DNA of 64,000 bases from an uncultured Myxococcales bacterium (GTDB lineage Bacteria; Myxococcota_A; UBA9042). The notes under the pieces were generated by a model, which did no database searches, was not told where the DNA came from, and was given only the letters and a program-made list of their open reading frames with translations. The stretch covers positions 72,474-136,473 of the forward strand of contig CAIYWC010000189.1 in NCBI GenBank assembly GCA_903929795.1, read 5' to 3'. Within the stretch, counting starts at the first letter, position 1, and each line of letters begins with the position of its first letter. The position numbers and the translations under genes were made by a program. Of this stretch, positions 1,289 through 56,057 are shown piece by piece.

Positions 1289-2371
1289 ATGTCGCAAGTT
1301 TGTCTCATCCTCGGCGGTACCAACGTGCTCGAGCGCAGCATCCAATCCGCGCTTGGCGCCGCGCCGATCGTGGTTGGCAGCGCCGAAGAGGTCACGGCGC
1401 AGCTGGTCCATCACCCGGATGCAATCGTCGTGCTGGGACCGACCTTTCGCCGCGCGCTGGCGGCCGTCGCGCAGATTCGCCCGGAAGGCCAGACGCAGCC
1501 GCCGATCCTCGTGGTGTTTCGCGATGATCAGAAAGACGAAGTGAAGCGGCACCAAAAAGGCAAGGCGGTCGCGGACAAGTACGTGCAGCAGTCGCGCGCG
1601 GCCAAAGAGCTGGAACCGGCGCTGCAGGCGCTGATGGCGGCGCTGGTGGAGGAGATCGACGCCGTGGAGCTGGAAGAAGAAGTGACCGAGGAGCTGATTG
1701 CGGAGCTGGACGCCGCGGGCTTGGAAGCGCTGGAGGACGACGCCGAGGAGATGACCGCGGACGACCTGGAAGCGCTGGAAGACGACGACGAGCCGCTGAC
1801 GCCGATCGTGCTGATGGACGTCGTGACGCTCACCGTGGACGCGCTGGAGGAGGAGCCGACGACGCCGATGCCGGGCCGCGCGACCGCGCACAACGAAGTG
1901 CTGGGCGAGCTGGACGTGGAAGAGCTGGAGGGCGACGAGATCGTCGAGTCGCTGGAGCCGGAGGCGATTGAGCTGACCGAGGACGGCGACGACTTGGAGT
2001 CGCTGGAAGAAGTCCTGGACGAGGCCGTCATCGAAGAGGAGACGGAGGCGGAGGACGAGGCGCAAGCGCTGGATGCCGACGACCTGCACGAGGAGACGGC
2101 GCACGAGCACGACGGTGCGCTGCTGGCCGAGATGCAGGGGCTGCGCGACAAGCTGCAGATCGCCGCGGATTTGGCGGCGCAAGGCGAGAGCCACAACGCC
2201 GAACTGCAGGGCAAGCTGGCCAAGCAGAACGCCGAGATCGCAGCGCTGCAAGAGCAGCTCAAAGCCGCGCGGGGGCAGGTCGCCGCGCTGCAGACCCGGA
2301 TGATCGACTGCCGGATTCAGGCGGAAGAAGCCGCGGGGATCGTCAAGGCACTGGCCGGCAAGCTGGGCTAG
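1289..2371 (+). CDS. FrzS/AglZ-like protein with an N-terminal pseudo-receiver (CheY-like) domain, a highly acidic repeat linker (LEALEDD...) and a C-terminal coiled coil
   Basis: ATG at 1289 is preceded by GGAGC. The N-terminus CLILGGTNVLERS...PDAIVVLGPT...PPILVVFRDD...KGKAVADKYVQQ parallels the Myxococcus FrzS receiver (ILIVESD...PDLVVLAVDL...VPIVIIGNPD...LKAHADEYVAKP) but lacks the phospho-acceptor Asp. The middle is about 45% Asp/Glu with repeated ELEEE/LEALEDD units. The C-terminus has heptad-like LQGKLAKQNAEIAALQEQLKAARGQVAALQ. The upstream part of ORF 869..2371 overlaps ffh antisense and was rejected. Confidence 0.7.
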   Translation: MSQVCLILGGTNVLERSIQSALGAAPIVVGSAEEVTAQLVHHPDAIVVLGPTFRRALAAVAQIRPEGQTQPPILVVFRDDQKDEVKRHQKGKAVADKYVQQSRAAKELEPALQALMAALVEEIDAVELEEEVTEELIAELDAAGLEALEDDAEEMTADDLEALEDDDEPLTPIVLMDVVTLTVDALEEEPTTPMPGRATAHNEVLGELDVEELEGDEIVESLEPEAIELTEDGDDLESLEEVLDEAVIEEETEAEDEAQALDADDLHEETAHEHDGALLAEMQGLRDKLQIAADLAAQGESHNAELQGKLAKQNAEIAALQEQLKAARGQVAALQTRMIDCRIQAEEAAGIVKALAGKLG

Positions 2372-2630: not shown

Positions 2631-5600
2631 CTACCAGCCGCTCACCGGGACGCCGGAGACGACGCCGTTGCTGTCGTCGCCAAAGCACTGGACGGCCTTG
2701 CTTGTCAGCACGCCGCACACGACGTTTTCGCCCGCGCCGACCGAGAGCCACTTGCTGCCGGCGGGCGGCGTCGACGAGCCGGACGCGGTCGTGGTCCAGC
2801 AGGCCAGCGTGTTGTCTGCCTGGACGGCGCACGCCATGCTGCCCGCTGCAATGCCGATAAAGCTGCCGGTGGCGGGCGCCTTGGACACCGCGAACACCGA
2901 GTCGTCGCCCCAGCACGTGATGCCGCCGCCGGACTTGCGGATGCCGCACGTAAAGTTGTCGCCAGCGCTGATTTGGCTGAACGTCGCGCCGCCGGGCACC
3001 GTGGTCTGGCCGTATGTGTTCGTGCCCCAGCAGGCGACGGTGCCGTCCGCGCGCAACGCGCAGCTATGGTTTTGGCCGCAGCTGACCTGGACGAACGCGC
3101 CGGTGGGCGTACCGGTTGTCTGCGCGGAGCCGCTGTAATTCCAGCACTGCAGCGTGCCGTCGGTCTTGACCACGCAGGCGTGCGGTTTGCCGACGGAGAC
3201 CTGGGCGATGCCCGTTTGCGTCGACGTCAGCGCGGTCGGCGTGTTGGCGCCCCAGCACTGCATCTGGTTGCTGGCGTTCACGACACACGCGAAATAGTAG
3301 CCGGCGGAGACCTGGGTGAACGTGCCGGTCGGCGGCGTGGCGGCGCTGCCCCAGGCCAGCAGCTTGCCGGCGGCGTTCAGGCCCTCGGCGTAGGTGCTGC
3401 CGGGGTCGGCGAACGGCAAGGTCGCGCATGTTTGCGTGTGCGTGCAGCCGCTCGCGGGCACGCAGGCGTCGGTGGTGCAGGCGTTGCCGTCGTCGCAGCT
3501 CAGGGTCGTGCCCTTGCACGCGCCGGCGGTGCAGACGTCACCGCTGGTGCATGCGCTGCCGTCGCTGCACACGAGCGCGTTGTTGGCATGGCTGCAGCCG
3601 CTCGCGGGCACACAGCTGTCGGTGGTGCAGACGTTGGCATCATCGCAGCTGAGCGTTGCGCCGCTCTTGCAGGTGCCTGACGTGCACGAGTCGCCGCTGG
3701 TGCAGGCGTTGCCGTCGCTACACGCGCCGGTCGTGGGCGCGTGCGTGCAGCCGCTCGCGGACGCGCAGGCGTCGGCCGTGCAGGCGTTGCCGTCATCGCA
3801 GCTCACTGCCATGCCGACGCACGTGCCGGTGGCGCAGCTGTCGCCGGTCGTGCAGGCGTTGCCGTCGTTGCACGCGCTGGTCGTCGGGACGTGGTTGCAG
3901 CCGCTGCCGGGCACGCAGCTGTCGGTCGTGCAGGCGTTGCCGTCATCGCACAAGCCGTCGTCGGTCAGGCCATTACAGTCGTTGTCCACGCCGTCGCAGA
4001 TTTCGATGGCGCCGGGGTGAATCGCGGCGTTGCCGTCGTTGCAATCCAGCTTGTTGGTCACAAAAGTCGCCACCGGCGTGCAGCTCTGGACAAAGACCAG
4101 CGGGTTGCCGTAGCCATCGCCGTCGCCGTCGGCGTAGTAGAACGTGCCGGCGCCGTTGTCGATCTGCCCGTCGCAGTTGTCGTCCACGCCATTGCAGACC
4201 TCCGTGGCGCCCGGGTGGATCGCGCCGTTGGCATCGTTGCAGTCGCCGGGCACGGTCGCGCTCCACAGGCCGCTGCCGGCGCACAGGCACTTGACCTGAA
4301 TCAGCGCGTTGCCATAGCCGTCCGCGTCGCCGTCGTAGAAGAAGTTTGTGCAGGTGTCCAGGTTCGGCGGATCGGTGATCCCGTCGCAGTTGTCATCGAT
4401 TCCGTTGCAGATTTCCTTGGCTCCGGGGTGCACGTTCGGGTTCGTGTCGTCGCAGTCGGTGGCGTCCAGCGTGTGGTAGATCGGGTCGGCGGCGCAGGCG
4501 CACTTCACGTCCTTGCCGCCGTAGCCGTCGCCGTCCGCGTCGGGGTGAAAGCTGCTGCAGCCCTGCGCGCCCAGCTCATCGGTCTGGCCGTTGCAGTTGT
4601 CATCGATCTGGTTGCAGATTTCGGTCGCGCCGGGGTGGACAGCGCTCGACGCATCGTTGCAGTCGCCGCCGATGGTCACTGTGTGGACCGCGTCGGCCGC
4701 GCATAGGCAGGCCATGTCCGTGCCGCCGTAGCCGTCCTTGTCCTTGTCCGCGTAGAAATCCGTGCAGTCGACCGGCGGGCCGTCGTCCGTCAGACCGTTG
4801 CAGTTGTCGTCGATGTTATTGCACAGCTCCGGCGCGCCTGGGTGGATGCTCGCGGCAGCGTCGTTGCAGTCGCCGCCCTTGCTGGCGGTGTGACTCGCGT
4901 CCGCGACGCACAAGCAGACGCCCGCGCCGATGCCGTAGCCGTCGCCGTCGCCGTCGACATACCAGAGCGTGCAGCCCACGCCGGCGCCTTCGTCCGTCTG
5001 GCCGTTGCAGTTGTCGTCCACGCCGTTGCCGCAGATTTCCTGGGCGTTGGGGTGCACGCTGGCGTTCTTGTCGTCGCAGTCGCCGGCCTTGCTGGCGGTG
5101 TACGCGCCTTCGGGCCCGCACGCGCATTGGCTGGCGCCGGTGCCGTAGCCGTCGCCGTCCGCGTCCAGGTAGAACGCCGTGCAGCCCGGCCCGCCGATGC
5201 CGACGTCGGTGGTGCCATCGCAGTCGTCATCGACGCCGTTGCCGCAGATCTCGGGCTGGCCCGGATGGACGGCGGCGCTGGCGTCGTTGCAGTCGCCGCC
5301 ACCGAACGGGCAGACCTTGGGCTTGCCGACAACCGTCGCCGTCGCGGCGCACCAGCCGTCGCCGTCGCCATCGCAGCCTTCGTCCGTCACGCCATTGCAG
5401 TTGTCGTCGGCATCGTTGCACAGCTCTGGCGCGCCGGGGTAGACAGCGGCGTTGTTGTCGTCGCAATCCGTGCCGCTGGCGGACAGACCGGTGCCCGCGG
5501 CGCTGCACAAGCAGACCGGGCTGCCGGCGCCAAAGCCGTCGCCGTCCTTGTCCGGGTAAAACGGCGTGCAGCCCAGGGCGTTGGCGCCGTCCGTGATGCC

Positions 5601-6350
5601 GTCGCAGTTGTCGTCCACGCCGTTGCAGGCCTCCGTGGTGGCGCTGGGCGCGTCGCAGGCCGACAGACCGCTGGCCAGGCACGTGCGCACGCCCGGGCAG
5701 GTGCCCAGCGCGTTCTTGTTGCTGCACGGCGTCTTCGCACCGTCGGCGATGGCCTGCTGCGAACACGGGCACACGCCATTCTTGCGCAGGCACTGCTTGC
5801 TGGCCGCGGGTCCGCCGCTACCTTCCGCGTCGGCGCAGGCGTAGCCGGTGGGGCAATCGGCGTCCGCCTTGCAGCCGCTGCCGCAAAAGCTGCCGCTGGC
5901 GCCGTAGGCGATGCAGACCGCCGCGAGGTTGAGCTTCTGGCACTCGCTGTCCAGCCCGCATGGCCGGCAGAGCGCGGGCGGGCCATCGTCGACGGGCGCC
6001 GTCACATCCACAGCGGCGTCCGCAGCGGCATCCGGCGCCTCATCGCTGTCCCCGGTCGCCGTCGCGTCGCTGCCATCCGGGACTGCGGCATCCGCGGCGG
6101 GGACGTCGGCCGCGGTATCGGCGATCTCGCTGGCTGCATCCGGCACCGCATCGCCTTTGCCGGCGGCGTCTGCAGCCGCATCGGCGGGCTTGCCGCTGTC
6201 ATACGCCGCGACGTCGCCCTTGTTCACAAAACCAAGCTCGTCGCCAAAAACATCGTCGCTTGGCGCGTCGGCAATCGGCGTGCCACAGCTGGCGAACAGC
6301 ATCAGGAGCAAAAATCGCAGCGCAACGGCGCGACACAGCAGGGATTTCAC
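2631..6350 (-). CDS. Giant secreted lipoprotein (1239 aa) built from about 9 DGDGYG...C..DC.D.N..V.PGA.E.CNG.DDNC.G.TDEG repeats (putative metal-binding motif), about 6 Myxococcus cysteine-rich repeats (CDDGNACTTD.C....GC) and C-terminal RCC1-like propeller repeats (..CWG..)
   Basis: GTG start at 6350 with AGGAG 5 nt upstream. Signal peptide plus lipobox is MKSLLCRAVALRFLLLMLFASC|G. Repeat units were read directly from the translation. RCC1-like blades are QCWGANTP, LQCWNYSG, VACWGTNTYGQ, ITCWGDDS, LACWTTT and VQCFGDDS. Confidence 0.85.
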   Translation of the reverse strand: MKSLLCRAVALRFLLLMLFASCGTPIADAPSDDVFGDELGFVNKGDVAAYDSGKPADAAADAAGKGDAVPDAASEIADTAADVPAADAAVPDGSDATATGDSDEAPDAAADAAVDVTAPVDDGPPALCRPCGLDSECQKLNLAAVCIAYGASGSFCGSGCKADADCPTGYACADAEGSGGPAASKQCLRKNGVCPCSQQAIADGAKTPCSNKNALGTCPGVRTCLASGLSACDAPSATTEACNGVDDNCDGITDGANALGCTPFYPDKDGDGFGAGSPVCLCSAAGTGLSASGTDCDDNNAAVYPGAPELCNDADDNCNGVTDEGCDGDGDGWCAATATVVGKPKVCPFGGGDCNDASAAVHPGQPEICGNGVDDDCDGTTDVGIGGPGCTAFYLDADGDGYGTGASQCACGPEGAYTASKAGDCDDKNASVHPNAQEICGNGVDDNCNGQTDEGAGVGCTLWYVDGDGDGYGIGAGVCLCVADASHTASKGGDCNDAAASIHPGAPELCNNIDDNCNGLTDDGPPVDCTDFYADKDKDGYGGTDMACLCAADAVHTVTIGGDCNDASSAVHPGATEICNQIDDNCNGQTDELGAQGCSSFHPDADGDGYGGKDVKCACAADPIYHTLDATDCDDTNPNVHPGAKEICNGIDDNCDGITDPPNLDTCTNFFYDGDADGYGNALIQVKCLCAGSGLWSATVPGDCNDANGAIHPGATEVCNGVDDNCDGQIDNGAGTFYYADGDGDGYGNPLVFVQSCTPVATFVTNKLDCNDGNAAIHPGAIEICDGVDNDCNGLTDDGLCDDGNACTTDSCVPGSGCNHVPTTSACNDGNACTTGDSCATGTCVGMAVSCDDGNACTADACASASGCTHAPTTGACSDGNACTSGDSCTSGTCKSGATLSCDDANVCTTDSCVPASGCSHANNALVCSDGSACTSGDVCTAGACKGTTLSCDDGNACTTDACVPASGCTHTQTCATLPFADPGSTYAEGLNAAGKLLAWGSAATPPTGTFTQVSAGYYFACVVNASNQMQCWGANTPTALTSTQTGIAQVSVGKPHACVVKTDGTLQCWNYSGSAQTTGTPTGAFVQVSCGQNHSCALRADGTVACWGTNTYGQTTVPGGATFSQISAGDNFTCGIRKSGGGITCWGDDSVFAVSKAPATGSFIGIAAGSMACAVQADNTLACWTTTASGSSTPPAGSKWLSVGAGENVVCGVLTSKAVQCFGDDSNGVVSGVPVSGW

Positions 6351-6392
6351 ACGGCTCCTGTCCAGCTGGGCGCGGCGCCTCTCCCGGCCGCG

Positions 6393-6998
6393 TCAGGATT
6401 GTTCGCGGTGGTTCTCGCGCATGAGCGCAAGGAGCGCACACGCCAGCAGGAAGCGAGTATCGACATTCCTGCCCTCAGCCGCCACCGTCAAACGGTATTC
6501 TTTCACAAAAAACCGGAACACCTGATCGACTTTGGCCACCTCGCTGGTCCCCAGCAGCACGCGCCAGTGGCCCAGCAGGATCGGAAAGATCCGCCGCAGC
6601 CAGGACAGCCCGACCTCTTCCAGGATGCCCTGGGGCTGCTCGCTCTGGTCCAGCAATTCCCAGGTGTCGCGCACCATCGACTTCAGCCCACGCGAGCGCA
6701 GCGTGCCGATCCAGCCGCCCGTCTGCGCCGCCGTCACGTCGTAGACCCGATTCAGCGCCACGATCTGCCGCGACTGGATGGTCGCCAGTGGCTGCTGCAT
6801 GGCCTCGTCGGCGAAAATCTGGAACTGCTCGCGCATACGCATGACCGGGTGGCGCACGAAGGCGACGAGCTGGCCGCTGCCGTCCGTCACGCGAAACGTG
6901 CGGTTGAAAAACGATAGCCACGGCCGGCGGATGGTGTAAACGCCGTCGGGCACGGACTGAACAAGCGCGCTGCGCGGCGGAGCATAGGCAGTTTCCAT
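6393..6998 (-). CDS. Hypothetical protein of about 200 aa, possibly a tubby/scramblase/LURP-one-like fold (C-terminal hydrophobic helix FLLACALLALM)
   Basis: ATG at 6996-6998 (METAYAPPRS...) with GGAGAG 8 nt upstream. The longer ORF start at 7139 lies in the GH92 reading-frame region and was rejected. Family assignment is only an impression. Confidence 0.55.
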   Translation of the reverse strand: METAYAPPRSALVQSVPDGVYTIRRPWLSFFNRTFRVTDGSGQLVAFVRHPVMRMREQFQIFADEAMQQPLATIQSRQIVALNRVYDVTAAQTGGWIGTLRSRGLKSMVRDTWELLDQSEQPQGILEEVGLSWLRRIFPILLGHWRVLLGTSEVAKVDQVFRFFVKEYRLTVAAEGRNVDTRFLLACALLALMRENHREQS

Positions 6999-7018
6999 GG
7001 TCAAACCTCTCCAATTCG

Positions 7019-9361
7019 TTAGGGACAGGCGTTGGCACCCCAGGTGCTGTCGCCGGAAGTGAGCGTCAACTCGAGAAAGCCGCCCTGGGCGAGCGCGCTG
7101 TGCGCGATGCGCGGTTCCGTCAGCGGCTGGCCATTCCATTTCGCGCTGGCGATGTGCGTGGCGGCCGGCGCGCCCGGCGCTTCGATGCGCACGGTCTTGC
7201 CGCCGACGTCGATCTCGGCGCGGGCAAAAAGCGGTGCGGTCAGGGTGTAGTAGCCATCGCCCGGCGACACGGGATAGAGCCCCACCGAGGCAAAGACCAG
7301 CCAGCCGGACATGGCGCCGGCGTCGTCGTTACCCGGCAAGCCATTGGGATTCGCGCTGAATTGCCCAGCCAGCAGCGCGTGCACGCGGTCGCTTGCCAAA
7401 TCCGGCCGGCCCACGTCCACGTACAGCCACGGCGCGTGAAAATCCGGCTCGTTGCCCATGTCAAAATGGCCGCCGTCAAAGAAGTCGTTCAGGCGCTGCA
7501 GCGTCGCCGGCTTGCCGCCGATCTGCGCCACCAGCCCGCAGCGGTCCTGCGGGACGAGCCACTCGTAAATCCACGCCGTCGCTTCGGTAAAACCGACGGT
7601 GCCCGCGGGGTCAAACGGCTCCAGCCACGTACCGTCCTCCGCGCGCAACTGCGGGTAATTGTGCGGCCCCCATGTGTTGCGCCAATTGTTCGCGCGCGGC
7701 GCCATCTGCTTGGCCAAATCCTCGTTGCCGAGCGCGTGCGCATACTGGCCCAGACACCAATCCGAGTAGCTGTGCTCCAGGGTCATCGACGCGCCTTGAG
7801 TCAGATCACATTCCTGCGGAACCCAGCCATTTTGCACGTAAAACGGTGGCGAGCCTTGGTTGAAATAGCCGCATACGCCGTCCTGGTACGGGTTGACCGA
7901 ATCGGTCATCGCGCCGTGCTGCATCACCGTCATCGCCGTCGCCGTGTCAAAGTCGTGCAGGCCTTTTACGACCGCGTCCGCCATCACGCAGAAGGTGAAA
8001 TTTCCTGTCATTACACGGGAATCCCCGGTTGCCTGCCACGAGCACTTCGACAAGTAGCCCTCGGGTCCGACAATCCACAGCATCGACTGCAGCATGTCGC
8101 CCACGACCTCCGGCTGGATCAGCGTCAGCAGCGGGTGCACCGTGCGCGTCGTGTCCCAGATGCACCAATCGTCGGTGTAGAAGTGCTTGCCGCCGGTCGA
8201 CTGCACTGCCGCCACTTCCTTGGAATTATTCATGAACTGGCCGTCTTCGCTGTAATCCGCCGGCTGCAGCAGGGCGTGGTAGAGCGCCGAATAGAACCGC
8301 GTCCGCGCCACAGCGTCGGTGGTCTCGATGCGGATGCGCCCCAGCAGCTGATTCCACTCGGTCCCCGCGGCTTGCCACAGCTGGTCGATGGTGTGGTTTT
8401 GCAGCTCGTCCTGCTGGTGCTTGTGCGCCAGATCCGCGGAGATCAGCGACAAGCAGACCTGCGCGTCGATCGTCTGCGTCGCGTCGGACGGCCACTCCAG
8501 CCACGCGCCGGCGTTCGCGCCATCAGCGGCCAAGCCCGTGGTTTCCTTGCGGTCCTGCCACACGCCGGCGGCCGTCGGCGGCGCGCTGAACACGATCTGG
8601 GCGAAGACGGACGACAAGCCGACAATCGGCGTTTTGTCCTGCAAAATCCCGCTGATCAGCGGATCGACGTTGTAATCGCCGCGGCCCGTCACCGTGCTGC
8701 CGCTGACTTCCACATGGCCACCGACGCTTTTGCCGCGCGTGTGGCCAAAATCGACGAGCACGCGCGCGGTGCCCGGCGGAAATGTGTAGCGGTGCCAGCC
8801 ACAATGGCGCGTCGCCGCCAAATCGACGTGAATTCCGTGGTCGGTCAGCTGCACGCCGTAGTGGATCGGCGTGGCGATCTGCGTCGGCCGGTCGTAGGCG
8901 GTCGCATACTCGTCCTCGATGACCGTACGCGTGCCCATGGTCGGCAGCAGCGCGATCTGGCTATAGCCGTACGCGCTACCGCCCGGGCCATCCAGGTGCG
9001 TGTGTGAAAAGCCCTGAATCTTAGGCGAATTCCACTGGTAGCCTTTGATGTCCTGCGTGCCGTTGTCGGTGTCCGGACCCAGCTTGATCATGCCGTGCGG
9101 CAAGGTCACGCCAAAAAACGTGTTGCCGCCGCCATCGGTGCCGATGCGCGGATCGACAATCGCCGTCGGATCGGCAGCGGGCGCCAGCGCGGGCAAGTCC
9201 GGCTGGTACGGCGGCAGCTCCGGGCCCGTATCGCCCGCGTCCAGGGCCGCGTCCCCACTGGCATCCACGGCGTCGTCCGGCGTCGCCGGCTGGGAGGCGG
9301 TCTGCGCGCACGCCGTGAGCACAAGGACCAGAAGCGTCAGAACCGTGTGAAGAACTTTCAT
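7019..9361 (-). CDS. Glycoside hydrolase family 92 (alpha-1,2-mannosidase-like) lipoprotein
   Basis: Start ATG 9359-9361 (MKVLHTVLTLLVLVLTAC|AQ, lipobox). GH92-type motifs GTDGGGNTFFG, FSHTHLDGPGG and GNEPDFHAPWLY are present. The 139 aa upstream of this Met in ORF 7019..9775 have no signal peptide and were rejected. Confidence 0.85.
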   Translation of the reverse strand: MKVLHTVLTLLVLVLTACAQTASQPATPDDAVDASGDAALDAGDTGPELPPYQPDLPALAPAADPTAIVDPRIGTDGGGNTFFGVTLPHGMIKLGPDTDNGTQDIKGYQWNSPKIQGFSHTHLDGPGGSAYGYSQIALLPTMGTRTVIEDEYATAYDRPTQIATPIHYGVQLTDHGIHVDLAATRHCGWHRYTFPPGTARVLVDFGHTRGKSVGGHVEVSGSTVTGRGDYNVDPLISGILQDKTPIVGLSSVFAQIVFSAPPTAAGVWQDRKETTGLAADGANAGAWLEWPSDATQTIDAQVCLSLISADLAHKHQQDELQNHTIDQLWQAAGTEWNQLLGRIRIETTDAVARTRFYSALYHALLQPADYSEDGQFMNNSKEVAAVQSTGGKHFYTDDWCIWDTTRTVHPLLTLIQPEVVGDMLQSMLWIVGPEGYLSKCSWQATGDSRVMTGNFTFCVMADAVVKGLHDFDTATAMTVMQHGAMTDSVNPYQDGVCGYFNQGSPPFYVQNGWVPQECDLTQGASMTLEHSYSDWCLGQYAHALGNEDLAKQMAPRANNWRNTWGPHNYPQLRAEDGTWLEPFDPAGTVGFTEATAWIYEWLVPQDRCGLVAQIGGKPATLQRLNDFFDGGHFDMGNEPDFHAPWLYVDVGRPDLASDRVHALLAGQFSANPNGLPGNDDAGAMSGWLVFASVGLYPVSPGDGYYTLTAPLFARAEIDVGGKTVRIEAPGAPAATHIASAKWNGQPLTEPRIAHSALAQGGFLELTLTSGDSTWGANACP

Positions 9362-9467
9362 GACTCTATGGTTTCCCGTGTCGCGCGTCTTGGCAAGTGG
9401 CGGCTGCGGCAACAACAGGTTATCCTCGGCGCCGAGACGCGTCAGCCTAAGAAATAGAAGAGGAACC

Positions 9468-10211
9468 ATGTACTTGCGTATTTCGGTCGTCGGCATCACG
9501 GCAAGCGTCCTGCTGGGCGGCGGCTGTAGCGCCACGGTGGGCGGCGGCGGCGCGATCGTCGCCAAGGACGCGAGCGGCGACAGCGGCACGAGCCCCAGCG
9601 ACACGTACGCAGCGCCCAAAGGCGACAGCACCGGCAGCGACGCCACGGCCAAGGACGCCGACAGCGCGGATTCCGGGGGCATGAGCGCCCTGCTCGGCTG
9701 CTTGCAGGCCCAATGCGCGAGCCAAATGACGGCGTGCCAAAACAGCGCGGTCTGCGGCACTGCGCTGGCGTGCATCTACGCGTGCCCGGTCGCCGACAAC
9801 GTCTGCCCCAACACGTGCATGGATCCGCTCAAGAGCGACCTCGGCGCGCTGGCGGCCATCGACGCCGTCAGCAAGTGCGAGCAGGCCAACTGCGAAACGA
9901 CCTCGCTGCCCGCCAACACGTGCGGCAACGGCAAGTGCGAGGGCAGCGAGAGCACGTGGTGCTCGCTGGACTGCGACAGCACCATCAAGAGCCTGGCCTA
10001 CTGCAGCGAGGGCAAGTGCACGGCGACGGCGGACGCGTGCATCCTCGACGCCGACTGCAACACCGCCATGAACTGCGTGATGGAATGCACCGACCCGAGC
10101 TGCTGGGGCAATTGCCCGCCCAGCGCCAGTGCAAGCCTCGCGTTGTACAACGCCATGTGGAACTGCACGCAGTCGCTCTGCACGCTCTACCTGCCCGCGG
10201 GTTCGCCATGA
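9468..10211 (+). CDS. Cys-rich secreted lipoprotein (hypothetical; about 30 Cys in 247 aa)
   Basis: ATG 9468 preceded by GAGGAA. Signal peptide MYLRISVVGITASVLLGGGC|SA. The stop overlaps the next start (ATGA). Confidence 0.7.
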   Translation: MYLRISVVGITASVLLGGGCSATVGGGGAIVAKDASGDSGTSPSDTYAAPKGDSTGSDATAKDADSADSGGMSALLGCLQAQCASQMTACQNSAVCGTALACIYACPVADNVCPNTCMDPLKSDLGALAAIDAVSKCEQANCETTSLPANTCGNGKCEGSESTWCSLDCDSTIKSLAYCSEGKCTATADACILDADCNTAMNCVMECTDPSCWGNCPPSASASLALYNAMWNCTQSLCTLYLPAGSP

Positions 10212-10501
10212 AGGACGCCGCTGCCAACGCTTGCCGCGCGCCGAGGCTGGTGGTGCCGGTCATCAACCGCAACAAGTGCGAAGGCAAGGAAGATTGCGTG
10301 CGCGTCTGCCCCCACGACGTGTTCACCATGGCGACCCTGACGGAGCGGGACAAGGCGACGCTGTCGCTCATCGGCCGCCTGCGCGCGCGTGTCCACGGCA
10401 GCCGTCAGGCTTTTCTGGTGGATGTGGACGCCTGCCACGCGTGCGGACTGTGCGTGACGTCGTGTCCGGAAGGCGCGATTCGCTTGGTGAAAGTGCCGTA
10501 G
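10208..10501 (+). CDS. 4Fe-4S dicluster ferredoxin (about 97 aa)
   Basis: Two CxxCxxCxxxCP motifs (CEGKEDCVRVCP and CHACGLCVTSCP). ATG at 10208 overlaps the upstream stop 10209-10211. Confidence 0.8.
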   Translation: MKDAAANACRAPRLVVPVINRNKCEGKEDCVRVCPHDVFTMATLTERDKATLSLIGRLRARVHGSRQAFLVDVDACHACGLCVTSCPEGAIRLVKVP

Positions 10502-10517: not shown

Positions 10518-10748
10518 TTGGCGCAAACAGCATGAAATTGTTGTGCATGATGCGGATTTGATTTCGGAACGCTCACGTCCGATGGCGCGCTCGCAGAGAC
10601 AAACGACGGCGCGATTCGCAAGGCTCGGGGCGCGCGGTGCGGACTTACGTCCGCTCTTTGCGGACCTGCGGTCCGAGGCGGTGCGCCCGTCTGGGCGCGG
10701 ACCGGTTGCAAGCGGCGAGTGATTCGAGTGAATCGCCGCACGGATCGG
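10518..10748 (+). repeat. Copy B of the roughly 230-bp structured repeat (see 2388..2616)
   Basis: Begins TTGGCGCAAACAGCATGAAAT 16 nt after the ferredoxin stop. Hairpins at 10639-10654 (GCGGACTTACGTCCGC), 10661-10675 (CGGACCTGCGGTCCG) and 10683-10698 (GCGCCCGTCTGGGCGC). The stems are conserved and the loops differ from copy A. The ATGAAAT-initiated frame stops after 9 codons here, whereas copy A runs 69 codons, so the element is not coding. Confidence 0.6.
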
Positions 10749-10762
10749 CATTGACCTGAGCG

Positions 10763-10918
10763 GCTATTCGCGTTCCAAGTGTTCGCGCGGCGGGATGCCG
10801 TCTGGTCTTTGCTAGCGCGGGCCCGCTATTCGCGTTCCAAGTGTTCGCGCGGCGGGATGCCGTCTGGTCTTTGCTAGCGCGGGCCCGCTATTCGCGTTCC
10901 AAGTGTTCGCGCGGCGGG
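10763..10918. repeat. Tandem direct repeat, 62-bp unit x 2.5 (GCTATTCGCGTTCCAAGTGTTCGCGCGGCGGGATGCCGTCTGGTCTTTGCTAGCGCGGGCCC)
   Basis: Exact copies begin at 10763, 10825 and 10887. The third copy is truncated 3 nt before the OmpA-family stop codon (10922-10924). Confidence 0.7.
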
Positions 10919-10921
10919 CCC

Positions 10922-12034
10922 TTACTTATCCGGCGGCAGGAAGTTGAACTCGACGCGGCGATTCTTCTCGTACGCCGCCTTGTTCTTGGCCGGATCAAGC
11001 GGCCGGTCCGGCCCGAAGCCCACGGGCACCAGCCGGCTGCGGCCAATGCCCCGTTCCACCAGCGCCGCCACCACGGAGTTGGCGCGAGCCTGCGACAACT
11101 TCTTGTTCTTCTTGGCGTTTCCGGTCGAATCCGTGTGACCTTCCACCTGCACGCGGACTTCGCTCTTGTCCTTGAGCGCCGCCGTGCATTCGTCCAGGAT
11201 CTTCATGCTCACTTCGCCAACGATCGTCGCCTTGTTCACCGCGAACTGGATCTGCTTCTTGAACACGATCTTGTCGTTCTCGACCTCGATCGTGTCGTAC
11301 TTCTTGGGCTCCGGCGGCGGCGGCGGCAGCTCGTCCGGGCAGCCGTCTTCGTCGTCCAGCCCGTTGAACGTCTCCGGCTTGTCCGGGCATTTGTCCAGGT
11401 GCTGCGGGTAGTCGATGATGCCGTCGCCATCGTTGTCGACGTCCGGGCAGCCGTCCTGGTCCTCGTAGCCGTCCTTGTCTTCCGCGTAGTTGGGGCACTT
11501 GTCCTTGACGTCGAGGATGCCGTCGTTGTCGTTGTCCGGATCCGGGCAGCCATCCTCGTCCAAAAAGCCGTCCTTGTCCTCGGGCTGGTCGGGGCAGCGG
11601 TCGAACTGGTCCTTGATGCCGTCGTTGTCGCGGTCGTATTCCGGGCAGCCGTCGTCGTCTTCGTCGTTGTCGTAGTCTTCCGGATCGTCAGGGCATTTGT
11701 CGTCCGCGTCGCAGATCCGGTCGCCGTCGCGGTCCGGGCAGCAGCCTTTTTGGTCCTTGACCGCAGCCGCCTTCTCCGTGTGTTCCTTGGCGATGTTCAG
11801 GTTATGCCCGGCGCTCAGCATGTCGCCGTAGCTCGACTCCAAATTGGCAAAATCGAGAAACGCTTCCGCCAGCGCGAGGTCCTTGGGCGCACAATAATAC
11901 GCCGGCACTTTGACCTGACGGATCGTCTCGCTCAGCTTGGCGGATTCTTCCTGGACTTCGCTGCCAGTGGCGCAGGCGGTCGCCAGCAGGCAAACCAGCA
12001 CGCAAAACACAATGCGGTGGAGGCGCATGCTCAT
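10922..12034 (-). CDS. OmpA-family lipoprotein with thrombospondin type-3 Ca-binding repeats (D.D.DG..D..D.CPD)
   Basis: Lipobox LLATAC. About 8 TSP3-like Asp-rich repeats. C-terminal OmpA domain ...VEGHTDSTGNAKKNKKLSQARANSVVAALVERG...NRRVEF. Confidence 0.9.
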   Translation of the reverse strand: MSMRLHRIVFCVLVCLLATACATGSEVQEESAKLSETIRQVKVPAYYCAPKDLALAEAFLDFANLESSYGDMLSAGHNLNIAKEHTEKAAAVKDQKGCCPDRDGDRICDADDKCPDDPEDYDNDEDDDGCPEYDRDNDGIKDQFDRCPDQPEDKDGFLDEDGCPDPDNDNDGILDVKDKCPNYAEDKDGYEDQDGCPDVDNDGDGIIDYPQHLDKCPDKPETFNGLDDEDGCPDELPPPPPEPKKYDTIEVENDKIVFKKQIQFAVNKATIVGEVSMKILDECTAALKDKSEVRVQVEGHTDSTGNAKKNKKLSQARANSVVAALVERGIGRSRLVPVGFGPDRPLDPAKNKAAYEKNRRVEFNFLPPDK

Positions 12035-12510
12035 TTGCCCCCCTGCGGCGCCGGCGGTGCGGGTGCGGCGGGCGCCTTGGGTGCGGCGGGCTCCTTGGGC
12101 GCGAACTTCTGCAGCCGCAGCTTGCGTTCTTTGCCCAGCCGCGCGACGTCCTGGGCCTTCTCGGCCGCCAGCTGCGCGAGCTTGGCGTACTCAGCCGCTT
12201 GCTCAAACATGCCTTCACCGGTCAGCTTTTTGGCCTTCTGGAAGTAGGAAGTTGCCCGCGTGTATTCGTACGGCGCGAATTCTTCGCCCTCAAGCTTGCG
12301 GGCCTCGTCGATTTGCTTTTGCGCGTCGCCCAGCGACTGCTGCGTGGAAACTGCGCCGCAGCCCAGCGCCGAAAGCACCAGCGCGGCGCCCACGAGCGCA
12401 CGAGTCAACGCGGTATTTTGCAACCTGTTTTTGCGGGCAACGGCTGGCCGAACGGTGGCGTCCAAGATGGTTCTCCGCGCGAGGTTGAGCGCGCCCATGG
12501 CCAGCGGCAT
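12031..12510 (-). CDS. DUF4398-like lipoprotein, commonly paired upstream of OmpA-family genes; start uncertain
   Basis: Overlaps the OmpA start (ATGA). Signal peptide with lipobox LSALGC. C-terminal Pro/Ala-rich tail. Start chosen at ATG 12508-12510; ATG 12498 or TTG 12513 are also possible. Confidence 0.65.
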   Translation of the reverse strand: MPLAMGALNLARRTILDATVRPAVARKNRLQNTALTRALVGAALVLSALGCGAVSTQQSLGDAQKQIDEARKLEGEEFAPYEYTRATSYFQKAKKLTGEGMFEQAAEYAKLAQLAAEKAQDVARLGKERKLRLQKFAPKEPAAPKAPAAPAPPAPQGGK

Positions 12511-12663
12511 CAAGCTCCAGGCTCGCTACTTTCACCGCCGGTCGCCGCCATGTCAAGCTGACCGCCCGTTTCCATGGCGGATGCGCCCGCGGAACGCACT
12601 TGTCAGCAAGCCATGCGGTGCGCCAAGATGCGCGTGCTGCGGCGTTGCCCGGCGCGGAGATTC

Positions 12664-35281: not shown

Positions 35282-38200
35282 TTACGGGTACAGGCCCTTG
35301 GACGCCGGCGTCAGATCCAGACCGTACGCGCTCACCGCCTCGCGGAGGTAGTACGGGATGGTCAGGTACTGCTGCAGCGTCATGCACGCGTGGTTGTCCG
35401 CGCACGTGCAACCGGAGTTGTTGGTCGCGTTGCAGTTCGGCGTACCGCCACCCGTCGTGACCGGCTGCATCGCCGCGTCATACTTGACCAGCGCCACGCC
35501 CGTCTTCGGGTCGGTCGCGGGCAGGTACCACTCCGGCGTGCCATCGCCATCCAGGTCCGGACCCGGCGTCGTCACATAGGCATCCTTGAGCAGGCTGTTG
35601 GCGTATTCAAGCACGCGCGCCGCGATGCCTTGCTGGACACTCTTGCCAAAGATCGTCTCTTTGCCAAAGTACCGGGCGACGTAAATCTTGCCATCCGCAG
35701 AGTGGAATTCCATGCGGTTGGTGCCGATGTTCGGATCCGCGTCCACGCCGAGCTCCCACAGCCGCATCTGGTCGAGCCAGTTCTGCTGCTGATTCTCCAT
35801 CAGGTAGAGCATGGTCCACGCAATGAAGAACTTCTGCTGCTCGTAGCCCTGCTGCGGGTCGATCACACCGACGGCCGTCGGCTGCACCGCGCCAAACGGC
35901 GTGGTGTTGTCCTGACCGTACGCGCGGCAAATGGTCGAACCAGCGCCCGGAAAGCAGGAGACCGGGGTCGCGCCATACCAGGAGGTGAAGCCGAGGCCCT
36001 TGGTCGGATACTGTTCCGCGTCCACTTCCGGATCGCCGCCAGCAGCCTTCAACGAGACGCGCGCGCCCTTGATGAAGTCGTCGCCCGTCAGCGTGTTGGC
36101 GATAAAGCGCCGGTAGCCTTCCGGGAACAGGTCGGCGATGGAGACGGAGCGATACCGCGCGTCCTCAAAGTCGCCCAGCGTCGAGCTGATGAAGTTGTCA
36201 ACCGACTCGGTCAGCAGCATCGAAGCGCCCGCCTTCTCGTAGTACGAACCGGCATTCAGGGTGTATTCGACGTTGTAATCCGGACCTTCGTTGGTCGCCA
36301 GCGCGTTCTCCACGGGCTTGCCGCCGAAGCTGACGGTCTCGAGCAGACCCGTCGCGCCGTTGGGCACGATCAGCTTGGTCGCCGGCGGCGTGTTCGAATT
36401 CGAGCCCGCCGTTGCGCGCAGGATCCCCGCCGTATCCGCATAGTGCGCACCGGCTTCTGGACGCGCCGCGATCATCGTGAAGTGATCGAACACCATCGAC
36501 GCACCGAGCACGGCATCCGGGAAGAAGTTCTGCGCCGCGTAATTCCACAGGTCGTCCGGGTTGAGGTTCTGGCTCAACGCGATGTCCCGGTAGATGTTGC
36601 GGTACAGACCCAGACCCTTGGCACCGTCGCGCATCTTCTCGTAGTAGCGCGTCAGCGAGCGGTTGTACGCGTTGCGGATCGCGAACGTCTTGCGGCCGCG
36701 GCGGTAGTTGTCAAAGATGTGGTTCACTTCCGGCTGCGTGATCATGAAGTTGAAGATCTCATAGTTATCCGCGCCGTTGTCGTGGCGGTAGACGCTGGCA
36801 TTGCCCAGATCCGCCCAGGTGTCCGTCGCGAAACCGTACGGCACGCGCGTGCGGCCGTCCTTGTCGATGTCCGGTCCGCCCTCGTAGTACTGCACGTTGG
36901 CGTCCTGCGTCGCGTTGGGCAGGGTCAGCTCCTGCCACTTGACGTAGTCGACGGGCTGCGCGCGGCAACGCGTGTAGCCGTTGTCGCCCTGCACAAGCAG
37001 ACCGTCCAGCAGCGGATTGAACTGACCGTCCCGCGTGTTGTCCCAGCGACCCGGCTTCCAGTTGATCGGGTCGCTGATCGCCGCGCAATTACCGATCAGC
37101 GCGTAATTCTTCTGGTATTCCGAATAGTGAATGTTGGTCGTCGCGCCCTTTGTCGCGCCGATGACCGGCTGCAGACCCAAGATACCGCCAAAGCCGTCCA
37201 TCTTGGAGAGCACGCCCGTGCCGCGCTTTTGGCCGACGTTATACGACGGGTCCTGGTAGACGGCGGAGGCGTCGCCGTAGAACATCGACGGCGCGTGGAA
37301 GTCGTACGCGCCCAAGCCGAGCAGGTCCTGCGTCGTCTCACCCGCGTAGTCCATCACCGACGACTGCATCCACATCCAAATCAGGTTGTCGCGCTCCGTC
37401 TTGGTGACCGGGTCAAAGTAGCGCGCGCCCACGCAGGTCTCGGCGTTGGCGACGGTCTGCAGGTTCGTGCACTTCTTGGTGACCGAACCGTCCTTGGTGC
37501 GGAGCTGCCAGTACTGCGGGCGGTAGTTGAACGCGTCCGCCGACGAGATGAAGTTGTGGCGCAGGCCGACCGAGTGACCCATTTCGTGAATCACGACGGC
37601 ATAGTGCACGCGACGGGCCAGGTAGAGGCGCATGGCCTCGGCGCGGGCCTGCTTGCGGGCGGTGAACGCCTCGTCGGTCATGTTCGGATCGGGCTTGGTC
37701 GTCTCGAAGCTGCCGAACTTGGCCTGCAGCACGTCGCCCAGACCGGCGATCGACAGCGGCGCATCGGCCATCTCCATTTCGCACGCGCCGCGCGACGCCA
37801 TCGCCAGCTCCTTGAGCTGCGTGAAGTTGCGCTGCACCGCCGGGTTGCCACCACGCAGCGGCGAGACCATGTCCATCAGCCCGGACGTCAGCTGCAGACC
37901 GGCGACGCCGAAGAACTGCTGCATCATCGGGGTCATCAGGTCCATCTCGAACTGCGTATTCGCCGCAGCCTGACGCCGCGCCATGTACGACGGCGAGTTG
38001 ACCGACGGCGCCCCCTGCTGCGCGGTCACGCCGGCGAGCTTGGCCGCAACGCCCGCCACCAGCGACGCCGCCTCCGGGTGCTGCTGCGCGAACTGCTGGG
38101 CGCGTTCCGGGTTGATCTGCACGCCGCTGGAACCCGTCCGCCGCGCGTACTGATCGGCGTTCACGCCGCCGGCCAGACCGCTGGTCGAAGCCGCTTCCGC

Positions 38201-40171
38201 CGCAGCCGCCCAGTTCTTGATGTACTTGCCTTCCGTGATGTCGGCAGCCTGCAGTTCGCCCGCGGCGTAGCGCGCCATGTCGACGGTGCCTTGGCTCCAC
38301 AGCTCGTTGATGTAGGTCCAGACGTTGATGCTGGCGGAGACTTTTTCGCCATTGGTCGGGTCCGAGCCATCGACCATGATGCCCCACGGCGACGGCGTGG
38401 CGGGTTCCACGATGCCGTTCACCTGGTGGTAGCGCAAGTCGCCGCGGCGCACGTGCGTCGCAGCGTTGCAGGTCGCGATGGTGGCCAGGTCGCCGGCGGT
38501 GTGGGCGTTGAAGCAAGCCTCGGCCGTCAAGGACGCGGGCAGGCGCTTGTCAGCCGGCGCGCAAATGGCGGGGTCGCCCGCTTCGACCGGGCTGTGGCAA
38601 AGTACAACCATTTCCGGCAGCTTGGCGATCGCGATCACGCCCGGCGCCAAGTTGCGCTTGGCGCTACCGCCAACGTCGTCAGCGATCGCGGTGCACGCGT
38701 TTTCGTCGCGGTTCTTGTCCTTGTACGCGAGGCCGTGGCGGCAGTCGTCGACTTCCTTGGCCAGCGCGATGGCGTCTTCGTTGTCGTCCTGCTGGCCAAA
38801 GTAGACCGGGAACTGCGCCAGGCACGTCGCCGGATCCGTGCCGGCGCTCTTGCATTCCGCGTACTTGGCTTCCTGGGCAGCGGCGCGCAAGGCGACGTCC
38901 CATTCATGCGTGGCGTCTTCGGTCGGCTGGAAGTAGTCGGGATTGCTGCCGTCCGCATAGTACCAAGCGATCGGCTTGGCCGTGCGCTTTTGGTACGGCA
39001 GGGTGCAGCGCTGGCGGAACGTGTCGCACTGCGAACCGCCGACGCCGGTCAGCTTGGTGACGCTGGCGCACTCGTCTTCCGTGCCGTCGCCGTCGGTGTC
39101 GCGGTGCGGATCTTCGCCGTACGGCGTGGTCGAGCCCGTGTAGCAGGTGACTTCGCCGGACATGGCGACCGGATCGGCGTAGTAGTGGCTGCGCTCCCAG
39201 ATGTTGTAGCGCTCCAGGAAGCGGTGCCACAGCTGGTCCGTCATGCCGTAGTCGCGCGAATAGCCGAGGCGATCAGTCGTGAAGCCGCCGGCCGAGGCGA
39301 AGCGAAAGCCGTCCCATTCCTTGGGCTCGTAGTCGCTGTCGACGACCTTGCGGAAGGAGTGGCGCAGCGTCAGCTCAACCGGATTGCACGTGGCGGCCGG
39401 CGCCTGGCCACCGGAGAAATCGGCGTCGAGAAAGCAGGACGGATACTCCTTGATGCCCCAACCCAGCGAAGACAGGTCGATCATGCCGGGCCGCGCGAAC
39501 GACTTGGTCGTGACGTCGAAGTACGTGCCATCGTCGGCGAAGTACGGCGCATCTTCCGAGCTTGGATCGACGATCTGGTAGGTCAGCGGTTCGTACGTGA
39601 TGCCACCGATGACGCCCATCATCGACAGCGTGTCGAAGTCATAGCTGTCTGTATTCAGGTTCTTGGACCAGTCGACGCGCATGTAGTCCCGCGCGTACCA
39701 CGGCCGATCGACGGTGTTCTCGCCGACGACGTTGTACTGCTCGCCCGTCGAGGCGTTGTAGTCGCGCTTGATGTCGAAGTGCGACTGAATGGCGAACGCG
39801 GCGACGATGACGCCGTCTTCGGTCGTCTTGCCCAAGCCCTTGCCGTCCGAGCTCACGATGCGCTCGTAGGAAAGGCGCGCAATCAGCAAGCTTTCGGTGA
39901 TCTGCCACTTGACGCGCGACAGCGGCTGCGCATAGGTCGACGTGAACAGGCCGTCTTGTGCCGCGCCGTATCCGACGTCAGTGACCGTCGTGCGGGCCCA
40001 GAATTCCGGATCGTCCGCCGTGCTGATGTAGTCAGCGCCGACAAAGAACGTCTTCTGCAGGGCATCCGGCTGGACGCGGTTGATCGGCGCACGTTCCTGG
40101 GCGCAACCGCTGACGATCGCAGCGATAAGCAAGCAGGGAAGAACGAGCGGGGTAAAACGACGGAGGTTCAT
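35282..40171 (-). CDS. Giant (1629 aa) secreted metzincin-type zinc metalloprotease lipoprotein
   Basis: ATG 40171: MNLRRFTPLVLPCLLIAAIVSGC|AQ lipobox. HEMGHSVGLRH (HExxHxxGxxH) and Met-turn SSVMDY about 40 aa downstream. DxDGDG Ca-loop-like motifs. The 102 aa upstream of this Met in the ORF were rejected. Confidence 0.85.
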   Translation of the reverse strand: MNLRRFTPLVLPCLLIAAIVSGCAQERAPINRVQPDALQKTFFVGADYISTADDPEFWARTTVTDVGYGAAQDGLFTSTYAQPLSRVKWQITESLLIARLSYERIVSSDGKGLGKTTEDGVIVAAFAIQSHFDIKRDYNASTGEQYNVVGENTVDRPWYARDYMRVDWSKNLNTDSYDFDTLSMMGVIGGITYEPLTYQIVDPSSEDAPYFADDGTYFDVTTKSFARPGMIDLSSLGWGIKEYPSCFLDADFSGGQAPAATCNPVELTLRHSFRKVVDSDYEPKEWDGFRFASAGGFTTDRLGYSRDYGMTDQLWHRFLERYNIWERSHYYADPVAMSGEVTCYTGSTTPYGEDPHRDTDGDGTEDECASVTKLTGVGGSQCDTFRQRCTLPYQKRTAKPIAWYYADGSNPDYFQPTEDATHEWDVALRAAAQEAKYAECKSAGTDPATCLAQFPVYFGQQDDNEDAIALAKEVDDCRHGLAYKDKNRDENACTAIADDVGGSAKRNLAPGVIAIAKLPEMVVLCHSPVEAGDPAICAPADKRLPASLTAEACFNAHTAGDLATIATCNAATHVRRGDLRYHQVNGIVEPATPSPWGIMVDGSDPTNGEKVSASINVWTYINELWSQGTVDMARYAAGELQAADITEGKYIKNWAAAAEAASTSGLAGGVNADQYARRTGSSGVQINPERAQQFAQQHPEAASLVAGVAAKLAGVTAQQGAPSVNSPSYMARRQAAANTQFEMDLMTPMMQQFFGVAGLQLTSGLMDMVSPLRGGNPAVQRNFTQLKELAMASRGACEMEMADAPLSIAGLGDVLQAKFGSFETTKPDPNMTDEAFTARKQARAEAMRLYLARRVHYAVVIHEMGHSVGLRHNFISSADAFNYRPQYWQLRTKDGSVTKKCTNLQTVANAETCVGARYFDPVTKTERDNLIWMWMQSSVMDYAGETTQDLLGLGAYDFHAPSMFYGDASAVYQDPSYNVGQKRGTGVLSKMDGFGGILGLQPVIGATKGATTNIHYSEYQKNYALIGNCAAISDPINWKPGRWDNTRDGQFNPLLDGLLVQGDNGYTRCRAQPVDYVKWQELTLPNATQDANVQYYEGGPDIDKDGRTRVPYGFATDTWADLGNASVYRHDNGADNYEIFNFMITQPEVNHIFDNYRRGRKTFAIRNAYNRSLTRYYEKMRDGAKGLGLYRNIYRDIALSQNLNPDDLWNYAAQNFFPDAVLGASMVFDHFTMIAARPEAGAHYADTAGILRATAGSNSNTPPATKLIVPNGATGLLETVSFGGKPVENALATNEGPDYNVEYTLNAGSYYEKAGASMLLTESVDNFISSTLGDFEDARYRSVSIADLFPEGYRRFIANTLTGDDFIKGARVSLKAAGGDPEVDAEQYPTKGLGFTSWYGATPVSCFPGAGSTICRAYGQDNTTPFGAVQPTAVGVIDPQQGYEQQKFFIAWTMLYLMENQQQNWLDQMRLWELGVDADPNIGTNRMEFHSADGKIYVARYFGKETIFGKSVQQGIAARVLEYANSLLKDAYVTTPGPDLDGDGTPEWYLPATDPKTGVALVKYDAAMQPVTTGGGTPNCNATNNSGCTCADNHACMTLQQYLTIPYYLREAVSAYGLDLTPASKGLYP

Positions 40172-40277
40172 GGCATTCCTCTGGGTGAACAATCGGGCGG
40201 TCAACATCAAGGGGGCGGACGTCAAGTGAGCGGTCCGTCTGAGCATTTCAAACAACACGAGCATTTCGAACAAGAAA

Positions 40278-55800: not shown

Positions 55801-55889
55801 GTGTCCGTAGCGCTTTTGGTGCCGCATGCGCTGGTTATCACGCACAAGCCCAGCACGAAAACTCCGCCCATCGCAAAAATTGCACGCAT
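52806..55889 (-). CDS. Large (1027 aa) beta-propeller-domain lipoprotein (hypothetical)
   Basis: ATG 55889 with GGGAGG upstream. MRAIFAMGGVFVLGLCVITSAC|GT lipobox. Repeated beta-strand-rich units. The 339 aa upstream in the ORF were rejected. Confidence 0.75.
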   Translation of the reverse strand: MRAIFAMGGVFVLGLCVITSACGTKSATDTRQSDFTSLKPGSTGSAKSGSAESASPDGSNTATVSIEDSDVVRLDGNKLYVLNAFRGLQAVDVSDPLAPKLLSRVAAQGTPREMYVANSVATVLLSEHYAFTSTSPGQLQSTIGSQVQVVDLATPSAMQTAASIDLPGWVVASRRIDNRLIVVTADVGQTPWWGWCWGPYACMASASNVATGTATGGAVSSIAGPASLWWPWAGYGYGAWAPSGRVSVIDQQDAKNPKLLGSVQFAGGVALAVIQPGEVIVLGSEWQTVGNTSQRVDRTQQIAVAADGSVKIAAADTQTLTGNDIWYAGLRSATALGTGELAVTSSTYQDGTPPTVGVQVLHRKVVGGQWTDLGVWQANAPQGWWDVRFDGSVALVSEGGWEAKSGTAMPTTLHVLDLTAAPTETAAITLPGSTQPVLATSLSQTTPGLWLLSGVQTSATGTAQTTLQMLSLADPKKPQLLGSATVDGGYAWWGAGTEVLPAAGVILAAMQSADGKSLNALKIVSFDAAGKLTPRGTFGSNLVSWWQLRSLAAGSKLWRVGNQALESIDIADLDHPKPLATLELAAQVTALASVSGRVVALVVDWQSNTAQLRTLTQGSTDEQHFDATLTVPEAYGRLSVVGNIVWFIGSQAVRAFDFTDPLQPKARGTWTATAANNQWYDLSSAVQNASVLWMVSYQSLPTYGDADACAVPSTDGASSQPGKPGVDADAAPATDADAIAQADGDSKTDVDAGIPLQNCIVSWQYTTTLTALDLSNPDQPAPKGSVSLPDAAWAWGAQITGDTLWLTHYESAQGADGTWYGKYYLDRVNVADAQTPVLASKVNVPGWIVGFSADGGQAYALDWQPQAGTQPQDGQIQSLLDVLSLEGDKAFLTGQTLLPGSAGAVVVNGAALYVAAWQYTWLAKTATGAAATPQTQLFVLDVSLPDAPTVVAALNPGAPIGAMSLHGKTLLATIGWGAGVQTWQVTTPLAPQFQAFWSVQGQTYDVLETATGLWLPMGWPGILLITQ

Positions 55890-56057
55890 GCCAACCTCCC
55901 TGCGGCAGTCTCCCGCCGGCCAGAACAGGCAAGGTGTCCGCGGCGGCGCTGTGTCACGGAATTGCCACAGAATCCTATGCAATGCACAGTTTGGGTGATT
56001 TCGCGTGTTTGTTGCTACCATGCGCCCGGTCCAGCAGGATGACCACAGGAGAAATCG

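Follow-up and report, generated by a model that had tools for sequence, protein, structure and literature searches.

Three co-oriented genes in a 64,000-nt stretch of contig CAIYWC010000189.1 from an uncultured Myxococcales bacterium (the whole stretch is referred to here as the window) encode a GH92 mannosidase lipoprotein, a small tubby-like protein and a large stalked-propeller lipoprotein. Our best reading, to which we give a probability of about 0.6, is that they form a lineage-specific, probably co-transcribed string, whose core is the pair of GH92 and the stalked propeller and in which the tubby-like gene, encoding a probably cytoplasmic protein, is a latecomer. All components belong to described families, and their arrangement occurs only in a narrow clade of freshwater myxobacteria, all uncultured. 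The pairing of GH92 with a stalked propeller is the sole mildly new lead, and its significance is modest. Tight co-oriented spacing by itself does not make a functional module; it is the comparative context that tells the apparently older GH92/stalk pair from the recently inserted gene.

Layout and transcription of the three-gene string

The string and its surroundings comprise the following features (coordinates within the window):

1289-2371, plus strand: gene for a 360-aa acidic protein, downstream of the string and convergent with it (ORF layout)
2631..6350, minus strand: 1239-aa predicted surface lipoprotein with MopE and CTDC repeats and a propeller (Pfam, regex, head model)
3434..3950, minus strand: DNA tandem repeat, 150-nt period, 3.4 copies, 75% matches (Tandem Repeats Finder)
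6351..6392, minus strand: 42-nt gap between the tubby-like and large genes, from the tubby-like stop at 6393 to the GTG
6393..6998, minus strand: tubby-like/LURP-one-related (YxjI-type) protein, 201 aa (tubby fold, PF04525)
6999..7018, minus strand: 20-nt gap between the GH92 and tubby-like genes, holding a ribosome-binding site
7019..9361, minus strand: GH92 family exo-alpha-mannosidase lipoprotein, 780 aa (Pfam, TIGR01180, BT3130 alignment)
9362..9467, no strand assigned: divergent intergenic region between GH92 and the 247-aa Cys-rich lipoprotein gene (ORF layout)
9468-10211, plus strand: gene for a 247-aa Cys-rich lipoprotein, upstream of the string and divergent from it (ORF layout)

An initial annotation, made from the sequence alone, had described three co-oriented genes with gaps of 20 and 42 nt, and the coordinates, minus-strand orientation and spacing were all borne out. 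GC3 is of coding type throughout (0.84 for GH92, 0.83 for the tubby-like gene and 0.90 for the large lipoprotein gene), and the upstream extensions of the GH92 and tubby-like ORFs appear non-coding. Host genome GC is 65-70%. The GH92 gene starts at the ATG at 9361, which opens a lipoprotein signal peptide; the tubby-like gene starts at the ATG at 6998, with a GGAGAGG ribosome-binding site ahead, and the large lipoprotein gene has AGGAG ahead of its GTG start at 6350. Given this spacing, the ribosome-binding sites and the hairpin-free gaps (no terminator-like hairpin was found in either the 20-nt or the 42-nt gap), the arrangement is compatible with a single transcript, and the string is probably transcribed as one. 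The divergent region 9362..9467 is presumed to be its promoter region. No sigma-70 consensus site was found at 9362-9467, and nothing relevant to the operon in a promoter/terminator scan exceeded shuffled expectation. Paralogues of the three genes were absent from the rest of the window. A defence-system role was dropped from consideration after PADLOC defence models, run on all three proteins, matched none of them.

The mannosidase and the stalked propeller

The identification of the first gene product as a GH92 mannosidase lipoprotein was upheld by both halves of the family architecture: the N-terminal domain (PF17678) scored 187.9 bits against a cut-off of 34.5, the catalytic domain (PF07971) 422.5 bits against 24.6, and the model TIGR01180 444 bits against 249.6. 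The protein opens with the signal peptide MKVLHTVLTLLVLVLTAC, whose lipobox LTAC (residues 15-18) was assigned by pattern match only, followed by about 45 residues of acidic Ala/Asp/Pro linker, the N-terminal beta-sandwich and the catalytic domain. Its closest solved relative is BT3130 of Bacteroides thetaiotaomicron (PDB 6f8z), aligned over residues 62-775 with an E value of 2e-88. In BT3130, the general acid is Glu535 and the general base is Asp637 (PMC5930347). After conversion of the construct numbering, these residues correspond to Glu593 (FTEATAW) and Asp680 (GNDDAG) in the protein described here. It is an ordinary, probably active Ca2+-dependent exo-alpha-mannosidase, and of the three proteins it is the only one for which action on a mannose-containing glycan is plausible.

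With the GH92 enzymes of B. thetaiotaomicron (BT3130, BT3990, BT3965), the protein shares membership of a two-domain family, a lipoprotein-type mode of export and the retained acid Glu and base Asp. The genetic setting differs. The myxobacterial gene lies outside any SusC/SusD polysaccharide utilisation locus and has as its neighbour a Cys-repeat stalk protein in place of Sus-like binding proteins. A literature search for GH92 in myxobacteria found nothing specific.

The product of the third gene was likewise predicted to be a lipoprotein, and its signal peptide carries the pattern-matched lipobox FASC at residues 19-22. Phenylalanine at position -3 is unusual in a lipobox; orthologues carry LSGC or CVGC. 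The mature protein is built of five parts:

residues ~25-125: acidic low-complexity linker
residues ~125-240: Cys-rich module, no family match
residues ~240-800: 9 MopE-type units of ~69 aa each (PF11617)
residues 801-975: 7 CTDC-type units of ~25 aa each (regex, PF00526)
residues ~985-1239: seven-bladed propeller head (PF13540, AF2 model)

By Pfam profile, the repeats of this protein are genuine repeat families and not the generic low complexity that the initial annotation had set down as evidence against its own reading. PF11617 was found in 9 stretches at 287 bits (cut-off, 27), in agreement with the roughly nine putative metal-binding motif units first proposed, and regular expressions recovered 8 DxDGDG and 6 CNGxDDNC motifs, spaced about 69 aa apart. 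The second repeat class was also real, with seven CxDGNACT units at a period of about 25 aa where about six had been proposed. The label given to these units, a Myxococcus cysteine-rich repeat, did not survive: neither the whole protein nor the repeat segment matched such a model in NCBIfam/TIGRFAM at E values up to 10, in a release that may lack the model, and the family that did match was PF00526 (Dicty_CTDC; 62.9 bits against a cut-off of 27, in 4 stretches). At the DNA level, the 150-nt tandem repeat encodes the CTDC-type Cys units as double units (protein repeats 801-952). The protein contains 107 Cys residues in total.

The C-terminal propeller, proposed earlier as RCC1-like, was confirmed by PF13540 (RCC1_2; 95 bits against a cut-off of 22) and by a confident seven-bladed model; PF25390 scored 41 bits, below its cut-off of 150. 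An AF2 model of the last 259 residues, built with eight orthologues, reached a pLDDT of 92.3 and a pTM of 0.90 and shows 20 strands, arranged three to a blade in about seven blades. Foldseek placed the head closest to beta-lactamase inhibitor protein II (BLIP-II) of Streptomyces exfoliatus (PDB 1jtd; TM 0.78) and the ectodomain of CRINKLY4; UVR8 and RCC1 ranked next, and all these hits had a probability of 1.00. The blades of BLIP-II are three-stranded. Like BLIP-II and CRINKLY4, the head is compact, its roughly 260 aa making up a propeller of seven short blades, each of about 37 aa and three strands (TM 0.75-0.80, 23-27% identity). The mode of display is different: here the propeller tips a lipid-anchored Cys-rich stalk, whereas BLIP-II is a free secreted inhibitor and the CRINKLY4 propeller is a receptor-kinase ectodomain.

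The stalk itself shares tandem DxDGDGYG...CNGxDDNCxGxTD units with myxobacterial and other MopE-type PF11617 giants. More than 4000 MopE-repeat relatives were found at an E value of 1e-40 or better, in many contexts and with a wide range of further accessory domains. Within the best 120 of these hits, the combination of MopE, CTDC and RCC1_2 domains occurs in this orthologue group alone, whereas the other giants carry C-type lectin, PQQ, PKD or T9SS domains. Stalk length varies widely within the group, from 1 MopE and 4 CTDC units in the L005 orthologue (about 535 aa, with signal peptide, linker and propeller kept) to the 9 and 7 units of the window; the L087 protein reaches 1324 aa. Because signal peptide, linker and propeller are constant while the stalk varies, the comparison suggests that the repeats serve as a spacer for the propeller, which would be the working head.

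The tubby-like protein and its place in the string

The small protein had been described as a 200-aa exported protein with a tubby-like fold and a hydrophobic C-terminal helix. The fold stands, although the length is 201 aa: about 12 strands form a closed beta-barrel, with a C-terminal helix at its centre. This helix is the hydrophobic one noted earlier, and it is the core helix buried in the barrel; no membrane-grade segment was found in the protein (maximum Kyte-Doolittle 19-residue mean, 1.1). Against a local copy of PF04525.18 the protein scored 13.2 bits (E = 0.07), below the cut-off of 24.5, and precomputed PF04525.20 hits cover this exact protein and all 92 of its database homologues. 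Identity to LURP-one-related/YxjI proteins (PF04525; At5g01750, PDB 2q4m/1zxu) and to the Tubby C-terminal domain is merely 11-15%. Some sources name the relatives YxjI or "Scramblase." Membership of the scramblase family was rejected, with no PF03803 match at E values up to 10 and no transmembrane-grade helix of the scramblase type.

A search for a signal peptide was also negative, and because the protein lacks both this and a membrane-grade hydrophobic stretch, it is probably cytoplasmic. Of the original proposal that all three proteins are exported, lipoprotein-type N-termini therefore remain for GH92 (LTAC) and the large protein (FASC) only. The family is single-copy and widespread in Polyangia-type myxobacteria, and many of its Arg and Lys residues are invariant across the 43 homologues compared. 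By analogy with Tubby, the protein may bind an anionic or lipid ligand, and it need not share the function of the GH92/large-protein pair. We know of no bacterial LURP-one/tubby-like member with a tested function, and a literature search on bacterial tubby/LURP proteins found nothing specific. The family is conserved across Polyangia-type myxobacteria, and the present locus makes the question of its function no more testable.

To place the string in its comparative context, 80 genome loci with tubby-like relatives were fetched, almost all of which carry a Myxococcota label (Sorangium, Polyangiaceae, Kofleriaceae and similar). The tubby-like gene lies between GH92 and the large gene only in loci L001-L006, in which the small protein is at least 82% identical. 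In 75 other Myxococcota loci, no GH92 lies within 10 kb of the tubby-like gene. Conservation of the trio as a unit is not supported, and this is in part the outcome that the initial annotation had named as counting against its reading. The neighbours change clade by clade: Sorangium has an acyl-CoA synthetase gene there, some Polyangiaceae have a histidine-kinase-like gene together with one for a sulfatase-like membrane protein, and others have an ABC transporter. Clustering of ORFs across the 80 loci gave clade-specific neighbours only, and a conserved partner of the tubby-like gene was discarded as an explanation.

Loci found through GH92 point the same way. In L084 and L082, whose GH92 proteins are 70% and 64% identical to that of the window, the orthologue of the large protein follows GH92 directly and the tubby-like gene is absent; the gene order otherwise matches the window (UbiA, DUF4398, OmpA, Cys-rich gene, GH92, large protein). 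L087 (GH92, 64%; large protein, 51%) also holds the pair without the tubby-like gene, with a different upstream flank in which a GH15-like gene abuts GH92. Since L082, L084 and L087 have the pair and lack the small gene at this site, the pair appears to be older and the insertion recent. The sequence CAGGAGCCGT precedes the GTG of the large gene both in the window (at the end of 6351..6392) and in the tubby-free L084. The simplest history would be that the tubby-like gene moved between the members of an existing GH92/large-protein pair in the ancestor of L001-L006, and so entered the string in one sub-clade. A scar of the translocation was sought in the window as former neighbours of the tubby-like gene, such as those in L008, L010 and L011, and none was found.

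These comparisons bear on two alternative hypotheses. The first, that of the initial annotation, is that all three proteins are exported and work together, as a single module, on a surface polymer or prey glycan that contains mannose. It would account for the co-orientation, the 20- and 42-nt gaps without hairpins and the retention of the trio in six loci. However, the retention says little because those loci are such close relatives (small protein at least 82% identical), and the tubby-like protein has neither signal peptide nor transmembrane segment, does not accompany the pair in L082, L084 or L087 and is encoded away from GH92 in the 75 other loci. We consider this hypothesis very unlikely. 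The second, drawn from analogy to Tubby and scramblases, makes the tubby-like protein a membrane-tethered regulator or sensor recruited to serve the two surface proteins. The tubby fold, the many invariant Arg and Lys residues and the tight spacing of an insertion into a transcription unit are in keeping with such a role, to which we nevertheless give hardly any credence, as the protein has no DNA-binding or other additional domain, PF03803 does not match, and its neighbours elsewhere (acyl-CoA synthetase, sulfatase-like protein, ABC transporter) are unrelated. We retain the reading of the tubby-like gene as a latecomer.

Shared function or shared descent of the pair

With the tubby-like gene set apart, the GH92 and large genes are adjacent and co-oriented in about nine loci of a single clade of freshwater metagenome-assembled genomes (MAGs), and the link between them may be functional or merely inherited. 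An alternative hypothesis is that the three genes have no functional link, are neighbours by descent only, and that the adjacency of GH92 and the large gene is residual synteny in one young clade. The adjacency may be of this kind because the downstream flank is kept in the same loci: in L082, L087 and the window, which are the loci with sequence downstream, the pair is followed first by a gene for a 347-374-aa acidic protein and next by a gene of about 540 aa. The latter encodes SRP54 in both L082 and L087, whereas for the contig of the window no Pfam hit is on record for it. Confinement to one clade fits residual synteny, as does the company kept by more distant relatives of each partner. 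GH92 relatives at 53-60% identity are followed by unrelated genes (a Ser/Thr kinase, a large membrane protein, another lipoprotein), and a conserved downstream partner beyond the clade was rejected, as the genes at that position in L083, L085 and L086 are related neither to one another nor to the large protein. The MopE-repeat proteins, more than 4000 in number, have many other domain partners and contexts. A metagenome scan for relatives of the propeller head returned three distant loci only, with neither GH92 nor MopE repeats nearby.

Two observations run counter to residual synteny. In L087, the pair is still adjacent and co-oriented despite the rearrangement upstream of GH92 that brought in the GH15-like gene, and both products of the pair are lipoproteins with alike acidic linkers. 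Descent alone is, in our judgment, a somewhat unlikely explanation, and we continue to regard the pair as the core of the string.

In the working model that we consider likeliest, GH92 and the large protein would both, judging from their lipoboxes, be located on the outer membrane or cell surface, and the acidic linkers after the lipid-modified Cys would fit tethering there. A variable-length stalk of Ca2+/disulfide-type MopE and CTDC repeats could then hold the constant propeller off the membrane. If BLIP-II and CRINKLY4 are a guide, the ligand of the head may be a protein or glycoprotein carried by prey or detritus, and GH92 may trim terminal alpha-mannose off mannan or N-glycan-type material. 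Extending this, we speculate that the two lipoproteins act as a surface capture-and-trim pair for mannosylated prey or fungal or algal glycoproteins, with gain and loss of repeats tuning the stalk and the tubby-like protein co-opted as a cytoplasmic or membrane partner; such a pair would be a non-Bacteroidetes counterpart of systems that combine a glycan-binding protein with a glycosidase. This elaborate version is doubtful, and we rate it as unlikely. Should the pair cooperate, it would indicate how uncultured freshwater myxobacteria handle alpha-mannosylated material, and the display of a BLIP-II-type propeller on a Cys-repeat stalk would gain a first context.

Several ENA/NCBI metagenome contigs carry identical genes in an identical context. 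Among genome records, the nearest are MAGs labelled "uncultured Myxococcales," and their isolate names point to lake samples.

Stalk variation and other large or MopE-repeat proteins

The number of stalk repeats in the large lipoprotein varies strongly among close relatives. At L005, a closely related locus that carries the GH92, tubby-like and large lipoprotein genes, the orthologue (about 10650-12217) is only about 535 aa long, with one MopE-type unit, four CTDC units and a full propeller. Two other giant open reading frames, both unrelated to the large lipoprotein, lie in the window:

35282-40486, minus strand: 1734 aa, sole match a weak one to Met-zincin (DUF4953)
52806-56936, minus strand: 1376 aa, Beta_propel domain

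The tubby-like gene of one sister clade occurs without GH92, immediately downstream of a gene for a different, 2111-aa MopE-repeat protein (locus L011, about 6261-8000). Because MopE proteins are so common in these genomes, this adjacency is probably coincidental.

Genes flanking the cluster

The window encodes the following on either side of the cluster:

1289-2371, plus strand: highly acidic, coiled-coil-like protein, 360 aa, without Pfam match; its gene and that of the large lipoprotein converge
9468-10211, plus strand: Cys-rich lipoprotein, 247 aa, without Pfam match; divergent from GH92
about 10208-10501: 4Fe-4S ferredoxin, 97 aa; its start overlaps the preceding gene by 4 nt
10922-12034, minus strand: OmpA-family lipoprotein carrying many thrombospondin-type-3-like DxDxDG calcium-binding repeats
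12031-12513, minus strand: DUF4398 lipoprotein, preceding the OmpA-family lipoprotein

Three sister loci (L082, L084 and L087) have GH92 followed by the large lipoprotein. A gene similar in size (347-374 aa) and orientation to that of the acidic protein occupies its position in L082 and L087, where it adjoins ffh (SRP54). The position of the Cys-rich lipoprotein gene is filled in L082 and L084 by a similar-sized gene (259-275 aa) on the opposite strand; this does not hold for L087. The DUF4398 and OmpA-family lipoprotein pair is also kept in L082 and L084.

GH92 neighbors in other lineages

L087 3071-5527: GH15-like protein, 818 aa, faint Pfam match; directly upstream of GH92 and abutting it
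L085 12006-13952: multi-pass membrane protein, 648 aa, no Pfam match on record; two genes downstream of a more distant GH92 relative (53% identity)

The C terminus of the GH15-like protein (…GCTSGRTGAGVWPVLWTLCVLWRARR) is similar to a MYXO-CTERM-type sorting tail. By eye, the L085 membrane protein looks like an ArnT/PMT-type glycosyltransferase; if it is one, this could represent a mannose-related link in another lineage.
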